The position numbers were made by a program, and so were the translations under genes. Shown piece after piece: positions 2,666 through 50,258 of a stretch of 64,000 nt of DNA. The notes under the pieces were generated by a model, which worked only from the letters and a program-made list of their open reading frames with translations, searched no databases and was not told where the DNA came from. The stretch is taken from the IMG/VR virus record IMGVR_UViG_3300031857_000014, one strand, 5' to 3'. Position 1 is the first letter of the stretch. Every line of letters starts with the position of its first letter. Source of the DNA: a virus. Its lineage: Duplodnaviria; Caudoviricetes.

Positions 2666-4414
2666 TTATCTTAAAGTGTTCAAATCAAATGTTTGAAGAC
2701 CTCTCACATCGATAGTTGCGAAGTAACGGTTGTTAACCATTTTCTTTGCGTATCTTGTCATGATACCTTTAATCGGTGTCATGTTGAAAGGATTATACAT
2801 TGTTGGAGTCAACTGTAATGGTACGTATGGTGCGTAAATGTAACCAGCGTCTAACAATGACTTACCTTTGTGTCCAATCAAGATTTTTCCTGCTGGGAAG
2901 TAAGGGTCACGATATACTTGGTAACGACCTGCTAATGTACCAACTTTCTCAATACCCATGTTGTACTGATCTTGCTCAGGAGCAGCGTTTGATACGTGGA
3001 AATATTCCAAATCATCGAATACTGCAGAAACTTCTGAAGAAACAACGATCCAGTTAGCACCACCTCTCAAAGTAGTTTTGTGGATTTGAGCAGACAATTG
3101 GTTAATTTTGGTTAACAATGTTTGGTTCCAATCTTTTTGAGTGTAACCCTGAAGAGTAGCACCTGCATTACCACCATATTTCCATTCGTTGTAATCCCAC
3201 TTCAATGACCATGCTGCACCTTTTCTAAGGTCACGTAAAATTTCACGGTCAACCTCAGCAGCGATTTGCTCAGATAACAACGCTGTTAACTCAGCTTCTG
3301 CATCGATGTTGTGGAACGCACTAACGTCTTGTGCTAATTCAGGAGACCAGCTAGCTCTCAATTTTCTTTCAGTTACAGAAACTGTTACTGACTCAAGATC
3401 GAAAGAAACTTCACCGATTTCATCTTCAAATTCCAAAGTAGCATATCTACGATAAGTAAAGATAAAGTCAGTACCATCTAAAGCACCACCTGCTACTGTG
3501 TAATTAGAGAAACCTGCAGTTGACGAATAAGTTTGTAAATCAACTTGGATGAATATAGTACCATTCTCATCGCAAATATCTTGATAACCAAGACCATTAG
3601 CAGAATCAAATGCTTTAACACCGTAATTAACAATTCCTTTACCATATTTCTGTGTAACGATATTGAATGGTAAATTTCCTGTTGATATACCTGAAATACT
3701 AACCGCGTTAGTCACAACAGATAATGAAGCCAAGAATTCTTCTGTATCCATTTCGTTACCGTCTGGACCAGCTAATTTACCTTGACCTGGTCTAGAGAAA
3801 CCACTAAGTGCAACAACTACACTTGATAAAGATGTATTAATTGGATAAGTTACACCATAAGTAACAGCTCCGTTAGAGAAAGTAACAAGACTATTACCTG
3901 TTAAACTAACTGTAGTGAAACCTCCTTTAGAGTAATCATACAATCCTGAAGTTGCGTCATCGTTTGACTCATAGAAACGATCATAAAGGTTAATACCTGT
4001 GTATCCAGTAGATGCACTTGTACCACCTCCACCACCTGGAATACCATATGGTTGATAGTGACCATTTCCGCCAGTTCTATCTTGAATTTTTGGTACGAAA
4101 TAGAATAATTTACCGATTGGTAAGTTCATAGCTTGTACAGACACGATGTCGTTAGCTAATAATTTAGAGAACACACGTCTGATGATAGGAAATACCACAG
4201 TCTCAAATGAACCTGAAGCATCAGATACTGCTGCTTCGTTTATCAAATAAGACGCTTGGTTTTCATACAACTGCGCGATGTTATCTTTCATGTGACCGTC
4301 AAGACCCTCAAGGAATCCGAGGTCATCCCATTTTCTGATGGTATCTTCTTTGATAACACGAAGGTGCTTAAGACCGATGTTACCAACCATACCTGATTCT
4401 AATAATGCTCCCAT
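2666..4414 (-). CDS. Major capsid protein, T4 gp23-like
   Basis: IIRRVFSKLLANDIVSVQAMNLPIGKLFY, VTERKLRASWSPELAQDVSAFHNIDAEAELTALLSEQIAAEVDREI and GYIYAPYVPLQ are gp23-family motifs. Confidence 0.95.
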   Translation of the reverse strand: MGALLESGMVGNIGLKHLRVIKEDTIRKWDDLGFLEGLDGHMKDNIAQLYENQASYLINEAAVSDASGSFETVVFPIIRRVFSKLLANDIVSVQAMNLPIGKLFYFVPKIQDRTGGNGHYQPYGIPGGGGGTSASTGYTGINLYDRFYESNDDATSGLYDYSKGGFTTVSLTGNSLVTFSNGAVTYGVTYPINTSLSSVVVALSGFSRPGQGKLAGPDGNEMDTEEFLASLSVVTNAVSISGISTGNLPFNIVTQKYGKGIVNYGVKAFDSANGLGYQDICDENGTIFIQVDLQTYSSTAGFSNYTVAGGALDGTDFIFTYRRYATLEFEDEIGEVSFDLESVTVSVTERKLRASWSPELAQDVSAFHNIDAEAELTALLSEQIAAEVDREILRDLRKGAAWSLKWDYNEWKYGGNAGATLQGYTQKDWNQTLLTKINQLSAQIHKTTLRGGANWIVVSSEVSAVFDDLEYFHVSNAAPEQDQYNMGIEKVGTLAGRYQVYRDPYFPAGKILIGHKGKSLLDAGYIYAPYVPLQLTPTMYNPFNMTPIKGIMTRYAKKMVNNRYFATIDVRGLQTFDLNTLR

Positions 4415-39317: not shown

Positions 39318-40230
39318 AAAAATATTATCCATTTAGGATTCACAGTTTTAATCTTCGGATTATTTCTGAAGTTCTAATAAAAGATAATTGGGCGGTCTAT
39401 AGTCCATTCACCTTCGGGTGACAGATACCTTCGGGTATTTGAAAATAAACTATGAAAGTAGTATAAAGTGACTTACTTTGGTTGAAGTAGGTTGCGGTTC
39501 TCGAAAGAGAACTCGAGTAGACAAGCGAGATATCATTTAATCTTGAGTACTGAGGGTGACACTGTAGGGAAAGTGGTTGAATGACTTGGCGATGTGGGTC
39601 GTCAGGTTGAGGTGGGAACACCAATAAGAATAACTCGTAGAATACATGCAAGAAATAAGGTCATCCTACTTTATAATTGCGTTGTTCAATATTAGAGTTG
39701 ATTTAAAACCGAAAGGTATGATGATGTACAGATGGTGCTGTTATTATCCTTAATCTTTGTCCTACCAAGGACTTGATTATGAAGTTGACTTGAAATATGG
39801 AGACAGGGATGTTTCAGAGGGTAGTTCAGTATTTTCTCGTTCAAAAGATGGGAGAACTGGTGACGGACCACTACCTTCAAAATCCACAAACCAAAACTTT
39901 TTGATTGTATTCAAAAATATTAAATCAATAAAGAAAAAGTGTCCGTCAGTTGTCAGAAACAGGTGACTACACAGTCGTGAGGGGTTCACGGCCACAAAGG
40001 GTCTCAAGCCCGATGTGATTTTTAAGAAAGTTCTCTAATCCCGCAAGGATGAGTTGGGGTGGCAACCTCGAAGAGCAGCAAGTATTAAGAGAGTATTTGA
40101 CAACTTTAGGATTGGTTAATCTAATTGACCGTCACTGATTGGTACTACTCAAAAGGTAGTGGATAAGGGAAGAACAAATAATGTCCCCAAGTCAATCAAT
40201 AGAACTTGTAATCTCAGAGTTTCTTTTAAA
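39318..40230 (+). ncRNA. Large (about 0.9 kb) highly structured ncRNA, GOLLD/ROOL-class candidate; boundaries approximate
   Basis: No credible ORF; higher GC than flanks; several cUUCGg and GNRA hairpins; long-range 8-9 bp helices; own promoters, boxA-like leader and terminator. Confidence 0.8.
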
Positions 40231-40305
40231 AAATTTGTTTCCTAGTTTAGTAAAACTATGGTGGTGGAGATAATGACTTCTTTATGCGGTCAGCCTCAAA
40301 ATATG

Positions 40306-40333
40306 AAAGGACTAGTAAACTAGTCCTTTTTTT
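40306..40333 (+). terminator. Intrinsic terminator of the large-RNA transcript
   Basis: AAAGGACTAGT-aa-ACTAGTCCTTTTTTT. Confidence 0.8.
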
Positions 40334-40421
40334 ATTATACCACTTTTTTTTACCGGAAATTTTACTTATATTTATATTCAGTTAACGATTTTGTTAACTA
40401 TAAACTAAATAAAAATAAAAT

Positions 40422-40946
40422 ATGAAAAAAACAGTTTTCTTATTAGTTGCAACAATGTTAGCATTTACAACATTGTACGCACAAAAACAATCTGACATGT
40501 TTGTTAGTGGAACAGTATCGTTCACTAAAACTACAGATGTAGACGCATCTTATCAATTAAAACCAACTATCGGTTATTTTGTTACAAACAAACTTGCTGT
40601 TGGTGTACTTGGTGAAGTATCAAAATCAAGCACAGAAGAAGTATTGAATATCGGTGCTTTCGGAAGGTATCACTTTTTAACTGTTGGTAAAAATTGTCAA
40701 GTATTCTCACAATTGAGTTTGGCTAACAATTCTACAACAGTTGCTGGTGTAAAAACATCCGGATTTGGTGCTAATTTAGGTCTTGGTTCAAACTATTTTG
40801 TTACCAAAAGACTCGGTCTTACTATGGATTTAACCAATCTAATTACCTATTCAAATGTTGATTCTAAATCAACAATTAATATTGGTTTTGATGGTGTGGT
40901 AAACCCATTTGCAATTCCAAAATTTGGTGTTATTTATAATTTCTAA
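40422..40946 (+). CDS. Outer-membrane beta-barrel protein (small, Bacteroidota type)
   Basis: Signal peptide, alternating amphipathic strands (IGYFVTNKLAVG, FGRYHF, LGSNYFVTKRLGL), C-terminal GVIYNF. Confidence 0.85.
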   Translation: MKKTVFLLVATMLAFTTLYAQKQSDMFVSGTVSFTKTTDVDASYQLKPTIGYFVTNKLAVGVLGEVSKSSTEEVLNIGAFGRYHFLTVGKNCQVFSQLSLANNSTTVAGVKTSGFGANLGLGSNYFVTKRLGLTMDLTNLITYSNVDSKSTINIGFDGVVNPFAIPKFGVIYNF

Positions 40947-40968
40947 AAAAAATAACAAATATTATTTA

Positions 40969-40996
40969 ATCCCCACAATAGTGGGGATTTTTTTTT
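40969..40996 (+). terminator. Terminator after the OMP gene
   Basis: AATCCCCAC-aata-GTGGGGATTTTTTT. Confidence 0.75.
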
Positions 40997-41100
40997 GTCT
41001 AAACTTTTTGAGATTATTTTGAATAAAATAAAAATTGGTTCAAAATTTGATATAATTAAAATATTTAATATCTTGTTAACCTATTTATAATAAAGAACAT

Positions 41101-41652
41101 ATGAAAAATATAACATTATTTTTATTTTTTTTAATAGGTTTTTTAAGTGTGAATGCACAAACCCCTGATACTGTTTGTTATCGTTCAAATAACTCAACAT
41201 ATCAAGTAACAAATACACCGGGAAACACATATACTTGGACAGTCGCGTCACCTGGTGTTATTACAGGAGGACAAGGTACAAATGTGATTACAGTTAACTG
41301 GGGTTCAGCAAATCCTGGTTTAATTACAAATGCGGTTACAGTATTTCCAACAAGTGCTGAAGGTTGCGTAGGACCAACAGTATTATTAGATGTTTTTGTT
41401 TTAAACATTATACCTACAGTAACACCGGTAGTGTTATGTGCAGATGCTGGTTGTGTTCCTTTAATTGGTTCACCATCGGGAGGAGTTTGGAGTGGATCCG
41501 GTGTTAGTGGTAATCAGTTCTGTCCTAATTTAGTTACTGCGGGTCAATACACCATAACATACACATATAGTTTGGCTGGATGTACGTTTACAGGTACGGG
41601 TACCGCAACTGTAAATCCATTACCAACAATAAGTCCTATACAACATGATTAA
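41101..41652 (+). CDS. Secreted Ig/PKD-like domain protein
   Basis: Signal peptide; NTYTWTV..GVITGGQGTNVITVNW and GGVWSGSGVSGNQFCP...GQYTITYTY repeats typical of Bacteroidota surface proteins. Confidence 0.75.
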   Translation: MKNITLFLFFLIGFLSVNAQTPDTVCYRSNNSTYQVTNTPGNTYTWTVASPGVITGGQGTNVITVNWGSANPGLITNAVTVFPTSAEGCVGPTVLLDVFVLNIIPTVTPVVLCADAGCVPLIGSPSGGVWSGSGVSGNQFCPNLVTAGQYTITYTYSLAGCTFTGTGTATVNPLPTISPIQHD

Positions 41653-42212
41653 TGAAATGGATATTTTGTTTAATATATGTTTTACTGGGTTATGTCACAT
41701 ACGGACAACAAGAAATTGAATTATGTCCAGGTAATAGAAATACATTTACCTATTGGAGTAATTCATCTACATCAAATGGGGGTTGGTTATGGTTATTAAA
41801 CCTTGACACAATCTCAATAAACAGTAGTGTTAAAATAACATATCGAGACACCGGATTTTTTTTAATTACTGTTCATTATAAAGATGAATGTGGAGAACCT
41901 ATTCGTTTTTACAGAGTAAAAGTTAAAAAATGTCCCGAATCTGCAATATTTTTTCCAAACGCCTTTACACCAAATGGGGATGGATTAAATGATGGTTGGT
42001 CACCAATACCATTTAAAATAATTGAAATGAAATGGAATGTGTGGAATCGTTATGGTCAAAAAGTATACGAAAGTAAATACATTGAAGACAAGTGGAATGG
42101 GTTATACAAAGAAACACCACAACCAATTGGTGGATATGTTTTTCAATGTTGGTGGAAAGGAATTGATGGTAAAACTGGATATAAAAAAGGAAATTTAATA
42201 TTAATAAGATGA
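41652..42212 (+). CDS. T9SS type B (gliding-motility-associated, CHU_C-like) C-terminal sorting domain protein
   Basis: Signal peptide; IFFPNAFTPNGDGLNDGW, VWNRYGQKVYES, KWNG, QPIGGYVF, KKGNLILIR. Confidence 0.88.
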   Translation: MKWIFCLIYVLLGYVTYGQQEIELCPGNRNTFTYWSNSSTSNGGWLWLLNLDTISINSSVKITYRDTGFFLITVHYKDECGEPIRFYRVKVKKCPESAIFFPNAFTPNGDGLNDGWSPIPFKIIEMKWNVWNRYGQKVYESKYIEDKWNGLYKETPQPIGGYVFQCWWKGIDGKTGYKKGNLILIR

Positions 42213-42355
42213 AAAAATATATAACACGAGCAATATTTTTAATTATTATTTTTTTCTTAGTGATGGTGTTTTCTGGATGTACAAAATATTATTCACCTGA
42301 AAAATATGCTAACCCAAAAAGAAAATATGAGGTAGAAAGGAGAAAAGTATATTAA
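42209..42355 (+). CDS. 48-aa lipoprotein (absent from the ORF track)
   Basis: MKKYITRAIFLIIIFFLVMVFSGCTKYY...; lipobox FSGC; abuts both neighbouring genes. Confidence 0.65.
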   Translation: MKKYITRAIFLIIIFFLVMVFSGCTKYYSPEKYANPKRKYEVERRKVY

Positions 42356-42356
42356 A

Positions 42357-43727
42357 ATGAGACAAATTATCACATTATTATTTACAATATTTTCAATTGC
42401 AGGTTATTCTCAATGTGGTAATACTGATTTTGAAACAGGGACATTTACTGGTTGGTCCGGTAAATTAGGAACTTGTTGTCCAATTAATCTTCCAAATAAT
42501 GGTATTGTAAATGGGAGACAAACAATAATGACACAAGGAATTGATCCTCACTCATGCGGTGGTTTAAGAACTGTTTATCAAGGTACATATTCCGCTAGAT
42601 TAGGTAATGATAGAATTGGTGCACAAGCTGAAGGGTTGTCATATACATTAACAATAACACCAGCATCAACAATAATAAGGTATGCGTATGCTGTTATATT
42701 TCAAGATCCGAACCACGCAACTGCAGACCAACCCCGGTTTCAATCGAGAGTTAGATTAGCAAATGGTTCGATAATACCTTGTACTGATTATACTGTTACC
42801 GCAGCATCAGATTTACCTGGATTTCAATATTGCTCACCAACACCACCTGATACGACATTTATCGCGTGGAGAGATTGGACTGAAGTTGCTGTTGATTTAA
42901 GTGCATATGTTGGACAAACAGTTACACTTGAATTTGAAACTGGTGATTGTAGATTAAGAGGTCATTATGGTTATGCGTATATCGACGCAGTACAATGTGG
43001 TCAATCAAATACACATGTGACTTATTGTGAAGGTGATGACTCATTAACTATAAATGCAATGGGTGGATTTGCAAATTATGAATGGGAAACAGGTGATACC
43101 ACACAACAAATAACAATAAATCCAAACTTATATGATACTATAACGTGTACTGTAACAACATTTTTAGGTTGTGAATTAACATTATATTATATATTAGACA
43201 TGGCACCAGGGTACCCTAATTTTATTTACAGTCCAAATTGTTCGGGATTAGTTCAATTCACAAATACAAGTACCGCATCATATACACCAATAAATTATTT
43301 GTGGACATTTCCTGATGGTACAACATCAACTTTAGAAAACCCAACACACATTTTTAGTCCAGGTATTCATAGTGTTAACTTACAAATTTCTTCTAATTTA
43401 GGTTGTGGTAGAGATACCACTATTTTGATAGAAATATATCCAACACCTGTACCTAATTTTTCCGCACCTAATGTTTGTTTAGGTGTTCCAACACCGTTTA
43501 CAAATTTATCAACTCAAACCCTTGGGTATCCGGTAAGTTATTTGTGGGGTTTTGGTGATAATTCCACATCAACAAATACAAATCCAATTCACCTTTATAA
43601 TAACTCTGGCACATATTTGGTTACATTATATGCTGCAACAACAGGAACAGGATGTATGGATAGTATAACAGGACAAATAACTGTTTATCAAAATCCAATC
43701 ATTATTGGTCCAATAATATCAAATTAA
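42357..43727 (+). CDS. Secreted PKD-domain protein
   Basis: Signal peptide; CGNTDFETGTFTGWSG N-domain; two PKD repeats (VQFTNTS..YLWTFPDGTTSTLENPTHIF; FTNLST..YLWGFGDNSTSTNTNPIHLYNNSGTYLVTL). Confidence 0.82.
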   Translation: MRQIITLLFTIFSIAGYSQCGNTDFETGTFTGWSGKLGTCCPINLPNNGIVNGRQTIMTQGIDPHSCGGLRTVYQGTYSARLGNDRIGAQAEGLSYTLTITPASTIIRYAYAVIFQDPNHATADQPRFQSRVRLANGSIIPCTDYTVTAASDLPGFQYCSPTPPDTTFIAWRDWTEVAVDLSAYVGQTVTLEFETGDCRLRGHYGYAYIDAVQCGQSNTHVTYCEGDDSLTINAMGGFANYEWETGDTTQQITINPNLYDTITCTVTTFLGCELTLYYILDMAPGYPNFIYSPNCSGLVQFTNTSTASYTPINYLWTFPDGTTSTLENPTHIFSPGIHSVNLQISSNLGCGRDTTILIEIYPTPVPNFSAPNVCLGVPTPFTNLSTQTLGYPVSYLWGFGDNSTSTNTNPIHLYNNSGTYLVTLYAATTGTGCMDSITGQITVYQNPIIIGPIISN

Positions 43728-44725
43728 TGAAACAATACTTAATAATTTTCTTTTTACTGTTTTCTAACTTTTTATATTCTCAATGTAAAGATGTGTATAG
43801 TGTTCAAATAGATTGTCCAACAGAACAGGATAGTTTAGTACTATACAATAACGCATTGAAAGTGTATGATTTTTATGATAATAATAAATCATATGAAAAA
43901 ACAAGAACAAGAGAATTAACATCAGATTTTGATAAAAGAAACATATTTGAAGATTTAACAACGGCTAGAAGATTATTTTTTGTTATAAGAAGAGAAGTCG
44001 CTAAAATAAAAGAAACAGAAAAAAAATTTATTGCGGGTAAAACAAGCCCAAAATATGTTGACATTAATTACAAAGAATATTATCAAGAAGTTGATGAATA
44101 TAGATTCTATCAAAGAGAAATAGAAAGTCAAATAGTGAATAAATCCGCACCAATTGCAATTTATGATAATAGAATTGCACCAATTATTGTAAATGAATAT
44201 CACTGTATTGACTCAACAAGCCCTTATTTTGGTGATTTAGTAAACATACCATTATATATTCCTGTGACTGTTAAACCTTTTATGTTATTAACAGAATCAG
44301 AGTTAATTATTCGTAATGATATTTTAAAAAAAATTGACCCTAACTACATACCAAAAAATATGAACAAACCACTAATAGATACAATGACTATTAGAGAAAC
44401 AATAACCAAAATAACAAATACTGAAGACAATAAAAAAAGAGTAATTATTAAAGATACAGTAATTAAAAAAGACAATATAAGAATAAAACAACCAGAAATA
44501 CAATTAAGTTGTACATTCCCTATTCCTGTTTATGCATTTAATCCTATGAGAGGGGGAACGTTGGTTGGATTTGTTTGCGATAAATATTTTATAAAAATAA
44601 AACCATCACAATACAACTATTATGCTGTACCTAAATGGGCTCAAGACATATTAGAAAATAAAAAAGATTTAAATAATCTCCTAAAAAACAAATTTGGTGA
44701 TTATTTATTAGGCGTGATAGAATAA
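43727..44725 (+). CDS. Secreted hypothetical protein
   Basis: Signal peptide MKQYLIIFFLLFSNFLYSQ. Confidence 0.6.
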   Translation: MKQYLIIFFLLFSNFLYSQCKDVYSVQIDCPTEQDSLVLYNNALKVYDFYDNNKSYEKTRTRELTSDFDKRNIFEDLTTARRLFFVIRREVAKIKETEKKFIAGKTSPKYVDINYKEYYQEVDEYRFYQREIESQIVNKSAPIAIYDNRIAPIIVNEYHCIDSTSPYFGDLVNIPLYIPVTVKPFMLLTESELIIRNDILKKIDPNYIPKNMNKPLIDTMTIRETITKITNTEDNKKRVIIKDTVIKKDNIRIKQPEIQLSCTFPIPVYAFNPMRGGTLVGFVCDKYFIKIKPSQYNYYAVPKWAQDILENKKDLNNLLKNKFGDYLLGVIE

Positions 44726-44735
44726 AATAAAAATT

Positions 44736-47015
44736 ATGAAAAAAATATCAATCATTTTAATTTTAACAATAATCTTTTCTTCAGCAAATGCAAGAAAATT
44801 TTACTTTAGTAGTTCTACAGGTAGTGATACCTACACTACAACTCAAGCACAAAATCAATCAACTCCATGGGCGAGTCTTAAAAAAATGGAACAAGTGTCA
44901 CGAACTGCGAATGTTTTTCAAGCGGGTGACACATTAGCATTTAAACGTGGTGATGTTTTTGCGAACGGGTACATCAATACTTTTGCAAGTATGCAATGGA
45001 GAAATGATGGTGGTACTTATTGGATTGCACCAAGTGGTACTCCAGATAGACCTATTGTAATCACAAATTACGGAGACCAAACTTTACCATTACCAAATTG
45101 GTTATGGCCAACAACCACATCTCCTGTTAACGCTTGGCCAAACACAAGGCCGGCAAGACATGTTGTTTGTTTTACAGGTGTTGCGAATATAGTGATTGAT
45201 GGTATTCAATCCAATGATTTCAGATTTCCCGAGAATGATAAAATTACACCCGCATATACAGGTGGATGGTTAATTGGAGAATGGACAAATTCTAGAACTG
45301 TCAATGGAGTTTATGTTCAAGGTGCGAATAACCCCAATAATAGAAAATATATGGTTACAAACTTCAAGGTTCGTAACTGTGTGTTTAATAACATTCAATA
45401 TGGTTTTGGTGGGATAGCTGCAATTAATAGCGAATTTAGTTATAATAGAATAACAAATTTAAAGGCTACGACAGATACTGCTGGTGTGAATGATGTGATG
45501 GCAGGTGCTTTCGAAGCTTTAAGTGGGTTTTATGTCAATATACATCACAACTATATAAAAGGGGCTTGGGCTAAAAGTGGACGAATAAGTTCAACAAATG
45601 GACTCGGCGGTGTTGGTTTTGATATTCTTAACTTAAAAAATAGTAAAATTGCATATAATACAGTGATTGATTGTTCGGGTATGTGGGAAATTGGTAATCT
45701 GGACAGATTAGACTCTACTTCAGGTGCACAATACGATACCTTCGCATTTAACAAAGTAATTAACTGTGGTAATTTCGGTTATTTACATGGTTCGACAGGA
45801 TCATTTATTGGTAATAATCATCATTTATCTTTTTGGAACAATGTAATAATATCTAATAACAAAGACAGACAAAATGGATTAGGTTTTGGAAAAGACGTTT
45901 ATGGGGATGGACAAGGATTTGCACCAGGGACACCTAATGCTTGGTGGATGTGTAGAAACCCTTTGAGTACATGGAATCAATCACCATATATCCCTTCAAC
46001 AACTACAACAGCTGGTTCAAACATAGTTACCGTGAGTAATGTAACAGGAATACGAATAGGTAGTGTAGCATTCGCAAACAATGATAGTCTTTTAGGTACA
46101 ACATATCAAACAGTTACTGTAACATCAATAAACGGAAATCAACTCACATTGAGTGTAAACTGTACTCGTTCTACTATCACTACGAATGTGGCTTATTACC
46201 TACCTGTATCTGATACCACATGGAGTACTCCACTCAATTCATCATTTGCTAATTACGGTGGTACAAGAGCTTTTATTCAGTATGCTTCTGACAATACCAC
46301 TTTTGGTTCATATATTGATACAATGATTGATAGTAGAAATAATATCATGTATTGGACCACAGGTATACAAGGAGTTTATGATAGAACAAGATTCAAAAGA
46401 AATAGTAATATATACACACCTATTGGTGGTGCTAGATTTACAACTTCGGTCGGTAGTCCATTAAGAACTTCTGAAAGAGTTATCACAACCAAACTATTCA
46501 GGGACACTACCGCCTTATATCCCGAGGATTGGGACTTACATCCTGTGGATACAAGTTACGCTTATGCGACAGGGTCACCAACACCAGGGTTTACCGTAGA
46601 CTTTGAAGGTAAACCAATAACGACACCTTTTATCGGATTATTTTCAAAGTTAAATGTCGTTACTATAGATACTTGTAGATTCACATATGGACAGTGGAGT
46701 TCTTGTAATGGAAGTTTTCAAACAAGACCATATACCTCATTTCCCTCGGGTTGTGTTGGCGTCCCACCACTTGATAGTATTCAAAGAAGTTGTGTCGTTG
46801 TTTCACCGGTTAGATATTTTTATTATAGTCCAAGTAGAGTTAGTATTAGAATTGAATCATCTACTTCAGGAGTAATTACAATTACAAATACTTTAGGTCA
46901 AGTAATTCGTAATATAAATTATTCTGCAGGAGGTTCTTGGAAAAGTGTTAATTTTTTACCTTCCGGAACATATACTGCAAGAACTTATGATAAATCATTT
47001 TTGTTTATAAGATGA
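44736..47015 (+). CDS. Right-handed beta-helix (pectin-lyase-like) protein with a T9SS type A-like C-terminal domain
   Basis: Signal peptide; FYFSSSTGSD..N..TPWASL..AGDTLAFKRGDVF start; Asn ladders; C-terminal ITITNTLGQVIR..LPSGTYTAR. Confidence 0.78.
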   Translation: MKKISIILILTIIFSSANARKFYFSSSTGSDTYTTTQAQNQSTPWASLKKMEQVSRTANVFQAGDTLAFKRGDVFANGYINTFASMQWRNDGGTYWIAPSGTPDRPIVITNYGDQTLPLPNWLWPTTTSPVNAWPNTRPARHVVCFTGVANIVIDGIQSNDFRFPENDKITPAYTGGWLIGEWTNSRTVNGVYVQGANNPNNRKYMVTNFKVRNCVFNNIQYGFGGIAAINSEFSYNRITNLKATTDTAGVNDVMAGAFEALSGFYVNIHHNYIKGAWAKSGRISSTNGLGGVGFDILNLKNSKIAYNTVIDCSGMWEIGNLDRLDSTSGAQYDTFAFNKVINCGNFGYLHGSTGSFIGNNHHLSFWNNVIISNNKDRQNGLGFGKDVYGDGQGFAPGTPNAWWMCRNPLSTWNQSPYIPSTTTTAGSNIVTVSNVTGIRIGSVAFANNDSLLGTTYQTVTVTSINGNQLTLSVNCTRSTITTNVAYYLPVSDTTWSTPLNSSFANYGGTRAFIQYASDNTTFGSYIDTMIDSRNNIMYWTTGIQGVYDRTRFKRNSNIYTPIGGARFTTSVGSPLRTSERVITTKLFRDTTALYPEDWDLHPVDTSYAYATGSPTPGFTVDFEGKPITTPFIGLFSKLNVVTIDTCRFTYGQWSSCNGSFQTRPYTSFPSGCVGVPPLDSIQRSCVVVSPVRYFYYSPSRVSIRIESSTSGVITITNTLGQVIRNINYSAGGSWKSVNFLPSGTYTARTYDKSFLFIR

Positions 47016-47656
47016 GAATAATTTTAATGTTATTAATTTTATTTAGTCCTAATTTACAGGTTTATCAAGAAAATCTTGTAACAGAAAATGAACATGTTTT
47101 AATACGAATTTTTAAATATGAACAAGAACTTGAAGTTTGGGTGAATAACTCAGAAAAAAAAGAATACTATTTGTATAAAAAGTATTCCATTTGTAAAATA
47201 AGTGGAACTCTCGGACCAAAAAGAAAAGAAGGTGATTATCAAGTTCCAGAAGGGTTTTATTACATAAACGATTTTAACCCTAAAAGTAAATATAAAAAAA
47301 GTTTAGGTATAAATTATCCAAATGAATCTGATAAAATACTAAGTACATATAAAAAATTAGGTGGAAACATATACATACATGGTGATTGTGTTTCAGTTGG
47401 GTGTATTGCTATTGGTAATAAATTTATTGAAGAGTTATTTTTAATTTGTATAAGAACAAAAAATCCGATTCCGGTTCACATTTTCCCAATTAACTTTAAC
47501 AATAATAAATCTAAAAATTCATTACTATATTACAATTATGTTTATGAAAACAAAAATTTTGAAACTAATTTAAAAAATGGTTTTAACTTTTTTGAAGAAA
47601 AAAAATATCCGCCAAAAATAAAAGTAGACAGTTTGGGATATTACCAATTTTTTTAG
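47012..47656 (+). CDS. L,D-transpeptidase family protein (YafK/DpaA-like)
   Basis: LEVWV, SGTLGPKRKEGDYQVPEGFYYI..FNPKSKYKKSLGINYPN, IYIHGDCVSVGCIAI. Confidence 0.87.
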   Translation: MRIILMLLILFSPNLQVYQENLVTENEHVLIRIFKYEQELEVWVNNSEKKEYYLYKKYSICKISGTLGPKRKEGDYQVPEGFYYINDFNPKSKYKKSLGINYPNESDKILSTYKKLGGNIYIHGDCVSVGCIAIGNKFIEELFLICIRTKNPIPVHIFPINFNNNKSKNSLLYYNYVYENKNFETNLKNGFNFFEEKKYPPKIKVDSLGYYQFF

Positions 47657-47670
47657 TTATATTTACAAAT

Positions 47671-48354
47671 ATGAAAATAGTATTAATTTCAGACACTCAC
47701 GGTTTACATGAAAAAATGTTGTATAACTTACCTGAAGGTGATATGATAATCTGTGCTGGAGATATAAGTAATGTCGGTAGTATATTTGAAATTAATCAAT
47801 TTACACAATGGTTTTCTAAATTGCAGTATAAATACAAAATTTTTATTGCGGGTAACCATGATTTTGGTTTTGAAAAAATTAGAAAATCTAATGAAATAGG
47901 TATTAGTATTCCACATGGTGTGATATATCTTGAAGATGAAATGGTTGAAATTGAAGGATTAAAAATATATGGTAGTCCTTGGCAACCCGAATTTCATAAT
48001 TGGGCATTTAATTTACCAAGAAACGGTGATCAAATAAAATTCAAATGGGATTCAATACCTGATGATACAGATATATTAATTACTCACGGACCACCTTTTG
48101 AATGTTTAGATATTACACCAACAAATCAAAGAGTTGGTTGTGAATTATTAAAAATTAGATTAGATGATTTGAAACCAAAACTTCATGTGTTTGGTCATAT
48201 ACATGACAGTTATGGAATAAAATATACAAGTGACACATTATCTGTAAATGCGTCTATTTGTAATGAAAGATATCAACCGATAAATAAACCAATTGTTGTT
48301 GAGGTGTCTGAAGTTTATGGTGAAAAAGTCATAACTTATGTTGATAATGGTTGA
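47671..48354 (+). CDS. Metallophosphoesterase (calcineurin-like)
   Basis: ISDTHG, ICAGDIS, IAGNHD, LITHGPP, HVFGHIH. Confidence 0.9.
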   Translation: MKIVLISDTHGLHEKMLYNLPEGDMIICAGDISNVGSIFEINQFTQWFSKLQYKYKIFIAGNHDFGFEKIRKSNEIGISIPHGVIYLEDEMVEIEGLKIYGSPWQPEFHNWAFNLPRNGDQIKFKWDSIPDDTDILITHGPPFECLDITPTNQRVGCELLKIRLDDLKPKLHVFGHIHDSYGIKYTSDTLSVNASICNERYQPINKPIVVEVSEVYGEKVITYVDNG

Positions 48355-48404
48355 TAAGATATTTAATATTTTTCATAGATATTTATATAGTACAACTAAA
48401 TAAC

Positions 48405-48632
48405 ATGAAAAAAATCGTAAACTTTTTTAAGTCTATTTTTACTACTCTTGGTTTAGACACTCAAATTGAAGAAATAAAAAAAGAGATAAAAGAAGAGGTT
48501 AAAGAAACCGTTGAAGAAGTAAAAACAAAGACTAGAAAACAAGTTAAAACCGCAAAAGAAAAAGTTTTAGGTAAGGAGGAAAAATCCACCAAAAAACAAC
48601 CAGTCAAAAAAACTTCAGCAAAAAAGAAATAA
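48405..48632 (+). CDS. Small Lys-rich protein
   Basis: TATTTATA at 48380-48387; amphipathic N-terminus and basic tail. Confidence 0.55.
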   Translation: MKKIVNFFKSIFTTLGLDTQIEEIKKEIKEEVKETVEEVKTKTRKQVKTAKEKVLGKEEKSTKKQPVKKTSAKKK

Positions 48633-48660
48633 TTTCAAATTATTTTATTATCTTTGTATT

Positions 48661-48672
48661 AGTTCTTTAAAA
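48661..48672 (+). promoter_or_regulatory. boxA-like element upstream of ssrA; other copies at 35790, 36594 and 39306
   Basis: (A/T)GTTCTTT(G/A)A(A/C)AT, resembling rrn boxA TGCTCTTTAACA. Confidence 0.6.
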
Positions 48673-48675
48673 TTA

Positions 48676-49094
48676 TGGGCCTGCCTTGGTTTTGACGGAC
48701 ATTTGTATGGTAAATGGGCATGTAGTCGGATGTCATCTACGACTTAAATCTACGGTGGTAAAATTCAAACGGCAACGTTTACAACAACATGGAAATTGCA
48801 GGTCTTCTTGCAACTTCTAAAGTAGCTGCTTAATTAAGTACCTACTCTCGGGTCGGTTAGGACATATAACCTAGGAACAGAAGTCCATGAGGTTTAACAC
48901 CTACCACGTGATTCAGTTCAGAAAAGTGTGTTGGAGCAAATCAGACGGCTCCTTAAATCCGGTTTGGGGATTGTTGGAAGTAGTTATCTAAATCTATAAC
49001 TTCCTATTTGTTGATTATGAATAATCAAATAAACATGTAGTCCATTTATTGTTCGGTGTTTCGGACAGCGGTTCGACTCCGCTCAGGTCCACCA
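48676..49094 (+). ncRNA. ssrA: tmRNA (phage-encoded), predicted tag (A)GNVYNNMEIAGLLATSKVAA at 48771-48833
   Basis: 5' GGGCCTG..GGTTTTGAC; 3' GCGG-TTCGACT-CCGCT-CAGGTCC-A-CCA; G3.U70 and A discriminator; TATCTTTG promoter at 48649-48656. Confidence 0.93.
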
Positions 49095-49103
49095 CAAATA
49101 AAA

Positions 49104-49127
49104 TTCCCCTCATTTGAGGGGTTTTTT
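49104..49127 (+). terminator. Terminator after ssrA
   Basis: CCCCTC-attt-GAGGGG followed by TTTTTT. Confidence 0.8.
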
Positions 49128-49295
49128 GTTTCAAGGACACATTGTCCTTGATAATGTCTTTGAGAGGTCTATAAACGAACAAGAGAGGTCTTTAGGACCC
49201 CTCTGTCGAGATTTTAGAATACCTCCTTTTCGTTTTTTAAAGGTTATCATCTAATGGCGACCAAACCGATTAGACTCTATTAATAAATATCTTAA

Positions 49296-50258
49296 TTAAA
49301 CACTTTGTGCTAACATTTTTAACATATTTAACCCCATTGCGTTTGATAAAACTGAAGATTGTCCCGCAGCAGGTGCACCTGCTTGTGCAGACATACTTTC
49401 TATTTGTGATAACTCTTGCGGTGTCGTAGACTGATTTATCAATTGTGAAAATCTTGGGTCATTAGCAAGTTGTTCCCTAAATTTTTCATCTGATTTAAAC
49501 TTATCTGAAAATGCTTCAAAACTCGGTAGACCAAACATATCCAATAAATTATTAGATATTACAAAATATTTGACCATATCCCTTCTACCTTTTCTAGCAG
49601 GCATTACAACATTCCACCAATTAGATAACCATGTTTTGGGTTCATGTCCGCGCTTTGTAACATATTGAGATAGTTTTTCATCCTGAAAAAACTTTTTATA
49701 TCCTGAACTAAAAGATTTACCCGCAGATATTTCTTTTCCTATTGTTTTACCGACATGAGCGGGTCTAGTTTTACCTAAACTCTCTCCAATTTTTTGTATT
49801 GCGGTTTTATGTTCAGTAATTGATTTAGTTAGTCCATTTGCCGCTTTTGTTCCAACAACAGGTATATTGTCTAATTGACTAATTGTTTTTCCTATTAACG
49901 GGTTGTTCAAGTGTTGACCTAATTTTACATACTCCTTTGCAAATTGTGGGTTTGTTGCAGCAAATCTTACCATATCATCACCACTCTTTAATGCCACTTT
50001 ACCCGCAACTCCGGAACCTTTTAATAAACTAATTATTGGTTTTGCAATAAAGTCACCCACAGTTGGAATCAATGCAATTAACATCAAACCGGCGTATAGG
50101 TATTCTTTTTTATAGATATATCTGATTATTAATATGATATCAAAGACTTCACCGATTACCGGAATAAAACCTCCAACCATTAATGCGTTCTCAATAAAGT
50201 CTTCATTGAGAACTTTTTTTGATTCTAAAATTTCTTTTTTTGTGTATTCTTTTCTCAT
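49296..50258 (-). CDS. Membrane-associated protein with a pre-toxin-TG-like N-terminal domain
   Basis: ALMVGGFIPVIGEVFDIILII..EYLYAGLMLIALIPTVGDFIAK. Confidence 0.55.
   Translation of the reverse strand: MRKEYTKKEILESKKVLNEDFIENALMVGGFIPVIGEVFDIILIIRYIYKKEYLYAGLMLIALIPTVGDFIAKPIISLLKGSGVAGKVALKSGDDMVRFAATNPQFAKEYVKLGQHLNNPLIGKTISQLDNIPVVGTKAANGLTKSITEHKTAIQKIGESLGKTRPAHVGKTIGKEISAGKSFSSGYKKFFQDEKLSQYVTKRGHEPKTWLSNWWNVVMPARKGRRDMVKYFVISNNLLDMFGLPSFEAFSDKFKSDEKFREQLANDPRFSQLINQSTTPQELSQIESMSAQAGAPAAGQSSVLSNAMGLNMLKMLAQSV

Follow-up and report, generated by a model that had tools for sequence, protein, structure and literature searches.

GOLLD RNAs are among the largest non-coding RNAs of bacteria or phages. 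The class was reportedly described by Weinberg et al. in 2009, and the same work is said to have found that a kissing pair between L20 and J13/15 covaries.

The closest described system to the locus studied here is env-38, an 833 nt GOLLD RNA that was solved by cryo-EM as a D7 14-mer cage (PDB 9MEE; Kretsch et al. 2025, PMC12286853). According to that paper, the 5ʹ region of env-38 (1–420) forms the cage cap, the 3ʹ region spans 421–833, and J13/15 is a disordered loop inside the cage (disordered linker 497–538). The supplement prints the sequence and lists the inter-subunit bridges. Bridge B7 joins L20 to J13/15 through the pairs U617-A547 and C618-G546, and bridges B8 and B9 are self-complementary kissing loops, L21a and L21b, that join the two half-shells. 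The same paper states that cages persist at 12.5 nM, and it mentions ribosome binding in pull-downs. A second GOLLD, from Streptococcus agalactiae (PDB 9L0R), forms a 12-mer and lacks P9, P11a–c and P21b, as given in PMC12990946. ROOL, an octameric phage RNA cage, has the same niche in phage tRNA islands and is likewise an RNA-only cage, but its sequence and fold are unrelated to those of GOLLD.

Here, we describe a locus in a 64,000-nucleotide stretch of viral DNA (Duplodnaviria; Caudoviricetes; IMG/VR record IMGVR_UViG_3300031857_000014), which we refer to as the window. A sequence-only reading had singled out positions 39318–40230 as an ornate non-coding RNA, either GOLLD-like or of a new giant class, and as the strongest candidate in the window for an undescribed system.

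Results

Assignment to the GOLLD family

When the window was scanned with all Rfam models, GOLLD (RF02032) matched at 39817–40220, with 326.2 bits (E 1e-92) for a gathering score of 150; the alignment spans model positions 1–416 of 416, with no truncation. The Rfam model describes only the conserved 3ʹ half of GOLLD, and we read the region upstream of the match, 39389–39816, as the GOLLD 5ʹ domain. No other large-RNA family among the Rfam models was matched. ROOL, OLE and HEARO had no match in the window at the gathering score, nor in 39000–40500 at E ≤ 1, and intron and rRNA families had no match within the stretch even at E ≤ 1. As had been proposed, there is no plausible protein: no ORF in the stretch is longer than 84 aa, the next two have 76 and 69 aa, and all three start with TTG. 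The 840-nt core has a predicted folding energy of -253 kcal/mol, compared with -209 ± 7 in dinucleotide shuffles (z = -5.9). By the criterion set in the sequence-only reading, the GOLLD match confirms the RNA and removes its novelty as a class. The 0.9-kb gene-free stretch is, on sequence grounds, almost certainly a complete GOLLD RNA. Hence, the GOLLD half of the earlier proposal stands and the new-class half falls; with it goes the claim to an undescribed system, GOLLD being a described class.

Relatives and compensatory evolution

A 3ʹ-domain pattern pulled at least 120 IMG/VR contigs. In nhmmer searches of 122 loci with the window sequence, 99 loci had the 3ʹ domain and 86 had the 5ʹ domain. 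Sixty-seven loci from IMG/VR phage contigs (57 distinct sequences) align from the promoter to ~40230, with 62–75% identity. RNAalifold predicted ~40 helices from the 57-sequence alignment. These comprise 230 predicted pairs, of which 97.2% are canonical and 127 have compensatory changes, defined as double changes in at least two sequences; sliding the 3ʹ partner by 1–3 columns left 24–40 such pairs, a generous control since the structure was drawn from the alignment used for scoring. The margin is large in both domains: 73 of 118 pairs are compensatory in the 5ʹ domain (96% canonical; 14–26 in slid controls), and 54 of 105 pairs have double changes in the 3ʹ domain (98.3% canonical; 8–14 in slid controls). 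Thus, the ~40 helices are maintained by compensatory evolution. Homology to the relatives stops at 40225–40235, and the core is 832 nt long in the window versus 794–831 nt in the relatives.

All 13 sequence strings picked out by the sequence-only reading occur exactly once, where it had placed them. Two of its hairpins belong to the conserved structure: GTTCTC-GAAA-GAGAAC is supported by covariation in the 57 sequences, and ACC-GAAA-GGT is invariant across them. Three of its four long-range helices also held up, with 56–57 of the 57 sequences paired at almost every position and compensatory changes present (GAGGGTAGT/ACTACCTTC, TGACGGAC/GTCCGTCA and AGTTGTCA/TGACAACT). The fourth, TGACTTGG (39582) with CCAAGTCA (40187), is a chance match: four of its eight positions are unpaired in 24–50 of the 57 sequences and none has a double change, and we rejected it because most relatives are unable to form it. 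A further predicted pairing, between 39309–39315 in the boxA-like leader and 40105–40111, is compatible in 49–56 of the 57 sequences, with zero double changes.

The pseudoknot in the 3ʹ domain (Table 1) is paired in 56–57 of 57 sequences at seven of its eight positions, five of which have compensatory changes. It encloses the variable, A/U-rich linker J13/15 (39879–39940), which is 62 nt long in the window and 51–73 nt in relatives. No tRNA was found inside this linker.

Table 1. Features of the GOLLD locus and its upstream tRNA island (window coordinates).
Feature	Position	Strand	Basis
tRNA island (Arg, Asp, Glu, Met)	36966..38624	+	tRNA search
Upstream promoter P1, Bacteroidota type: TTTG, 19 nt, TATATTTG	39153..39183	+	pattern match; direct repeat of promoter P2
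Proximal promoter P2: TTTG, 20 nt, TATCTTTG	39253..39284	+	pattern match; TAnnTTTG box kept in 56/57
5ʹ leader: hairpin AUCG-GAAA-CGAU, boxA-like AGTTCTTTGAAT (39306-39317), lineage-specific stretch	39290..39388	+	conservation; RNA contig 39341-39488
GOLLD 5ʹ domain, helices P1 to P12	39389..39816	+	nhmmer, 86/122 loci; covariation; collinear by eye with env-38
33-nt insertion, two UUCG-capped hairpins, between helix P1 and J1/2	39407..39439	+	gap in 56/56 relatives
GOLLD conserved 3ʹ domain (RF02032, model 1-416)	39817..40220	+	326.2 bits
Pseudoknot UGACGGAC (39861-39868) / GUCCGUCA (39941-39948)	39861..39948	+	covariation
J13/15 side of kissing contact with L20 (40004-40005)	39933..39934	+	covariation; env-38 bridge B7
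L21a (GCAA; GC at 40043-40044) and L21b (GGCA; GC at 40062-40063)	40040..40067	+	conservation; env-38 B8, B9
Last hairpin P27 (loop UAAUCU), then UUUCUUUU	40204..40228	+	conservation end; U-rich tail after P27 in relatives shown
Strong intrinsic terminator: 11-bp stem, loop AAAC, T run	40305..40330	+	sequence prediction

Lineage-specific parts

The three TTCG hairpins of the sequence-only reading are present as strings, but lie in parts that vary between relatives. AATC-TTCG-GATT is in a lineage-specific stretch of ~62 nt (39327–39388) in the leader that is absent in the closest relatives among the matches listed; in these, the boxA-like word is 9 nt before helix P1, and the distance in the window is ~62 nt longer. 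TCACC-TTCG-GGTGA and ATACC-TTCG-GGTAT lie within the window-specific insertion that follows helix P1 (39390–39405), and a contig from an RNA run (39394–39474) crosses this insertion without mismatch. Judged from the alignment, all three hairpins are lineage-specific expansions around helix P1. We also considered whether an extra UAUCC motif in the leader might compete with the L10–L12 kissing loop; this idea was dropped because the closest relatives simply have P1 at that position. At the other end of the RNA, P27 and the following UUUCUUUU form a possible first transcript stop.

Comparison with env-38 and other cages

Compared by eye with the printed sequence, the window runs collinear with env-38 from helix P1 to the last hairpin; no identical copy of env-38 for formal alignment was found in the loci or in IMG/VR. 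The two RNAs share the 3ʹ domain in full, along with a collinear 5ʹ domain (P1–P12) that includes the P11a GAAA loop, as well as the bulge-to-J13/15 pseudoknot around a variable linker, and the core of 832 nt in the window compares with 833 nt in env-38. They also share the bridge loops: P2 GAAA, GGAA, the CAAAA loops L14 and L26, L20, L21a and L21b. Both lie downstream of tRNA-Met in a phage tRNA island, and both come from aquatic samples. In contrast to env-38, the window has the 33-nt double-hairpin insertion after P1 and ~62 extra leader nt before P1, and its L10–L12 kissing contact is G-U where that of env-38 is G-C. The 3-bp core of this contact is invariant in the 57 sequences, with no covariation.

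Conservation extends to loops that bridge subunits in env-38. Within the clade, the GAAA loop of helix P2, GAGGGUGAC, GGAA, the CAAAA loops of L14 and L26, L21a, L21b and the P11a GAAA loop are all conserved. At columns 39934/40004, which correspond to bridge B7, there are 33 GC, 22 CG and one AU pair and a single mismatch, and 39934 is the best mutual-information partner of 40004 across the whole RNA. The AU pair is that of the window, as in env-38. The L21a dinucleotide is GC in 54 relatives and AU in three, self-complementary either way, and L21b GGCA is invariant.

The S. agalactiae GOLLD is of the same family and has the 3ʹ domain in common with the window. The window differs from it in keeping the P11a loop, the P11b and P11c helices and both L21 loops, which places it closer to the 14-mer form.

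Promoters, leader and terminator

The two host-type promoters, boxA-like leader and strong terminator of the sequence-only reading were all found (Table 1), although its start at 39318 needs revision: the transcript is likely to start at ~39290, and the conserved core starts at 39389. The leader word is GTTCTTTGAA, also given as GTTCTTTGA. Positions 39280–39320 are 72–84% identical across 56 relatives, and 38 relatives have a boxA-like GTTCTTT motif located 26–28 nt past the -7 box. The upstream promoter is followed by an incomplete leader copy, GTTCTT, at 39215–39220. The 75-nt trailer ahead of the terminator is poorly conserved. As patterns, these signals are not rare: whole-window counts of the promoter pattern (TTTG, 19–20 nt, TAnnTTTG) and of the boxA word are not above chance, with five matches to GTTCTTTRA versus 3.25 expected. 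On the plus strand of the window, GTTCTTTRA occurs four times, each time ahead of a stable-RNA gene. A sigma-70 scan was uninformative for this host type.

The same arrangement leads 16S in two Bacteroidota genomes, which agrees at the sequence level with the earlier description of the RNA as “transcribed like an rRNA”. In Danxiaibacter and Agriterribacter (Chitinophagaceae), 2–4 tandem TTTG-N19/20-TAnnTTTG promoters precede 16S, with AGTTCTTTGAAAG or GATCTTTGAAAG ~130–150 nt before it; the window likewise has tandem promoters followed by GTTCTTTGAA. Unlike in rRNA operon leaders, no leader-trailer stem for RNase III was found in the window: the leader-trailer duplex has an energy of -20.2 kcal/mol, compared with -21.0 ± 3.9 in shuffles. 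The rRNA leaders of these two Chitinophagaceae (L243 1–1520 and L244 1–1520) have four and two tandem TTTG-N19-TAnCTTTG promoters, respectively, and a GTTCTTTGAAAG-type boxA; they are a useful reference for host-type stable-RNA signals.

Transcription in environmental RNA

Thirteen studies contribute 20 public runs with near-identical sequence; six of the 20 are RNA libraries. We mapped four RNA runs from four studies (freshwater metatranscriptomes) over 35000–50000; these runs are stored as contigs, without transcript ends or levels, and many of the pieces come from relatives. Contigs fall almost only on 39341–40165, on the tmRNA (48716–49052) and on 36364–36498. The coding flanks of GOLLD are hardly covered, and only a few short contig pieces fall on the ~8 kb of coding sequence that separates GOLLD from the tmRNA. 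Several of the contigs have no mismatch. Since DNA carry-over would cover the flanks too, this pattern points to an abundant stable RNA. The GOLLD of the window is present in freshwater RNA libraries and is very probably an expressed RNA.

Two other places drew our attention in the same data. Contigs in three of the four RNA runs cover 36364–36498, just after an HNH gene (35873–36343), where a stable intron RNA may fit. At 38146–38225, contigs from three RNA runs (three studies) skip 77–78 nt (38147–38223/4) that lie inside an odd tRNA-like element, 38130–38249. The skip, with matches of just 18–22 nt on either side, hints weakly at a spliced form or at relatives without the insert.

Phage context

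Genes for a major head protein, a portal and a large terminase lie in the window, together with type IX secretion cargo genes, which are typical of Bacteroidota. With the tRNAs and tmRNA, this gene content marks it as a tailed phage of a Bacteroidota host. Four tRNAs lie within 2.4 kb upstream of GOLLD, and 665 nt separate the end of tRNA-Met from the GOLLD leader. Where relatives have a tRNA within 300 nt of GOLLD, it is tRNA-Met in 12 of 13. The tmRNA lies 8.4 kb downstream of GOLLD (5ʹ end at 48677). The tmRNA region (48640–49094) has a TATCTTTG -7 box and the word GTTCTTTAAAAT, which ends 4 nt before the first base of the tmRNA and is the same leader word that precedes GOLLD.

Directly upstream of GOLLD is an RNase H-like gene (PF04308, phrog_11311; 38660–39121). 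It has the same position in the five closest relatives among the matches listed (67–75% identity), and is elsewhere in the locus in four others. Genes that recur beside GOLLD in the 99 loci (tail lysozyme, methylase, glycosylase) follow clade synteny, and the window shares none of them. The neighborhood varies from clade to clade and offers no clue to function.

Two uncultured huge phages (635 and 642 kb) were the only deposited phage genomes with similar DNA; each has its own GOLLD (287 and 275 bits) adjoining tRNAs. In LR745206.1 and LR756502.1, which are unannotated and are the largest deposited huge-phage genomes matched, GOLLD lies at 3352–3757 of locus L001 and 2730–3136 of locus L002. 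A GOLLD pattern scan of genome contigs gave only chance matches among the 120 listed, with none confirmed by nhmmer. The GOLLD model had no match in 151 Bacteroidota genomes, in a search where no positive control matched either.

Discussion

Taken as a whole, the locus is very probably a complete GOLLD RNA of the env-38 (“lake”) type, carried by a tailed phage of a Bacteroidota host. By analogy with env-38, its ~830-nt core RNA (39389–40228) would have two domains and would self-assemble without protein into a closed, two-shell cage; we consider this probable. The likely size is 14 copies, because the P11a GAAA loop, L21a and L21b, which set the 14-mer of env-38 apart from the 12-mer of Streptococcus, are present. 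We extrapolate this stoichiometry from env-38. In such a cage, the A/U-rich linker of 62 nt would face inward.

How do other explanations fare? A new giant RNA class, a degenerate intron, an rRNA fragment or a hidden protein gene would each account for a stretch without ORFs and with dense helices, and nothing else speaks for them. They are refuted by the Rfam match to GOLLD, which is full-length and high-scoring, whereas introns, rRNA, ROOL, OLE and HEARO had no match in the stretch even at E ≤ 1, and it is base pairing, not codons, that shapes substitutions. We give these possibilities practically no weight. It is also very improbable that the locus is a decaying or passenger copy of GOLLD, without present function in the phage. 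The two lineage-specific expansions around helix P1 and the lack of conservation of the 75-nt trailer would fit such a copy, but all the helices and bridge loops examined are intact, the promoter and leader are conserved, and exact-match RNA contigs, insertion included, are present in environmental RNA libraries.

A more serious alternative, which we nonetheless regard as unlikely, accepts a true GOLLD and holds that in the cell it is a monomer or bound by protein, acting as a decoy for RNases or anticodon nucleases, or as a scaffold, with the cage as an in vitro form. The accessible text of PMC12286853 and PMC12990946 reports no in vivo image of a GOLLD cage, and PMC12286853 mentions ribosome binding in pull-downs. 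The RNase H-like gene that adjoins GOLLD on its upstream side, both in the window and in the five closest relatives among the matches listed, would also speak for this alternative. However, strict covariation is seen in the clade for the L20–J13/15 pair, which links different molecules in the solved structure, and the L21a dinucleotide remains self-complementary when it changes. Together, these two observations indicate selection on contacts between copies. Moreover, cages persist at 12.5 nM, according to PMC12286853. We favor a cage of the env-38 type.

The tandem promoters and boxA-like leader of GOLLD are described here from their sequence patterns; the accessible text of PMC12286853 and PMC12990946 makes no mention of a GOLLD promoter or leader. 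What might these signals do? In E. coli rRNA operons, boxA recruits Nus factors and shields untranslated transcripts from Rho. From its position and conservation, we infer a similar role for the boxA-like leader of GOLLD. Two tandem host-type promoters would yield large amounts of RNA, the leader would recruit host rRNA antitermination factors, and the long untranslated transcript would then escape Rho-dependent termination. We put the chances of high output from the tandem promoters combined with boxA-mediated antitermination at about even.

We tentatively propose that the cage would act on the translation apparatus in infection, holding or shielding tRNAs or ribosomal parts. A role in translation fits the place of GOLLD in a phage island of tRNAs, an intron-bearing tRNA and tmRNA, and we offer it as a possibility with the odds somewhat against it. 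An equally speculative proposal is that GOLLD in a large clade of Bacteroidota phages is a self-contained cassette, consisting of tandem rrn-type promoters, boxA leader, RNA and U-tract, that is made by the host rRNA machinery. If true, this would open a first way into GOLLD biogenesis. Another implication would be that cages reach ribosome-like abundance and act on, or compete with, host translation and rRNA synthesis, and the cage cap would carry the three UUCG-hairpin expansions around helix P1 as natural decorations.

As an RNA class, this copy is not new. It does provide a clearly defined natural variant, from a Bacteroidota phage of fresh water, in which the expression signals are intact. 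Four independent sets of environmental RNA data give evidence of its transcription, it has two natural expansions beside helix P1, and it comes with 57 diverse full-length sequences in which an inter-subunit contact covaries. Together, these could guide work on how GOLLD is made and what its cages contain.
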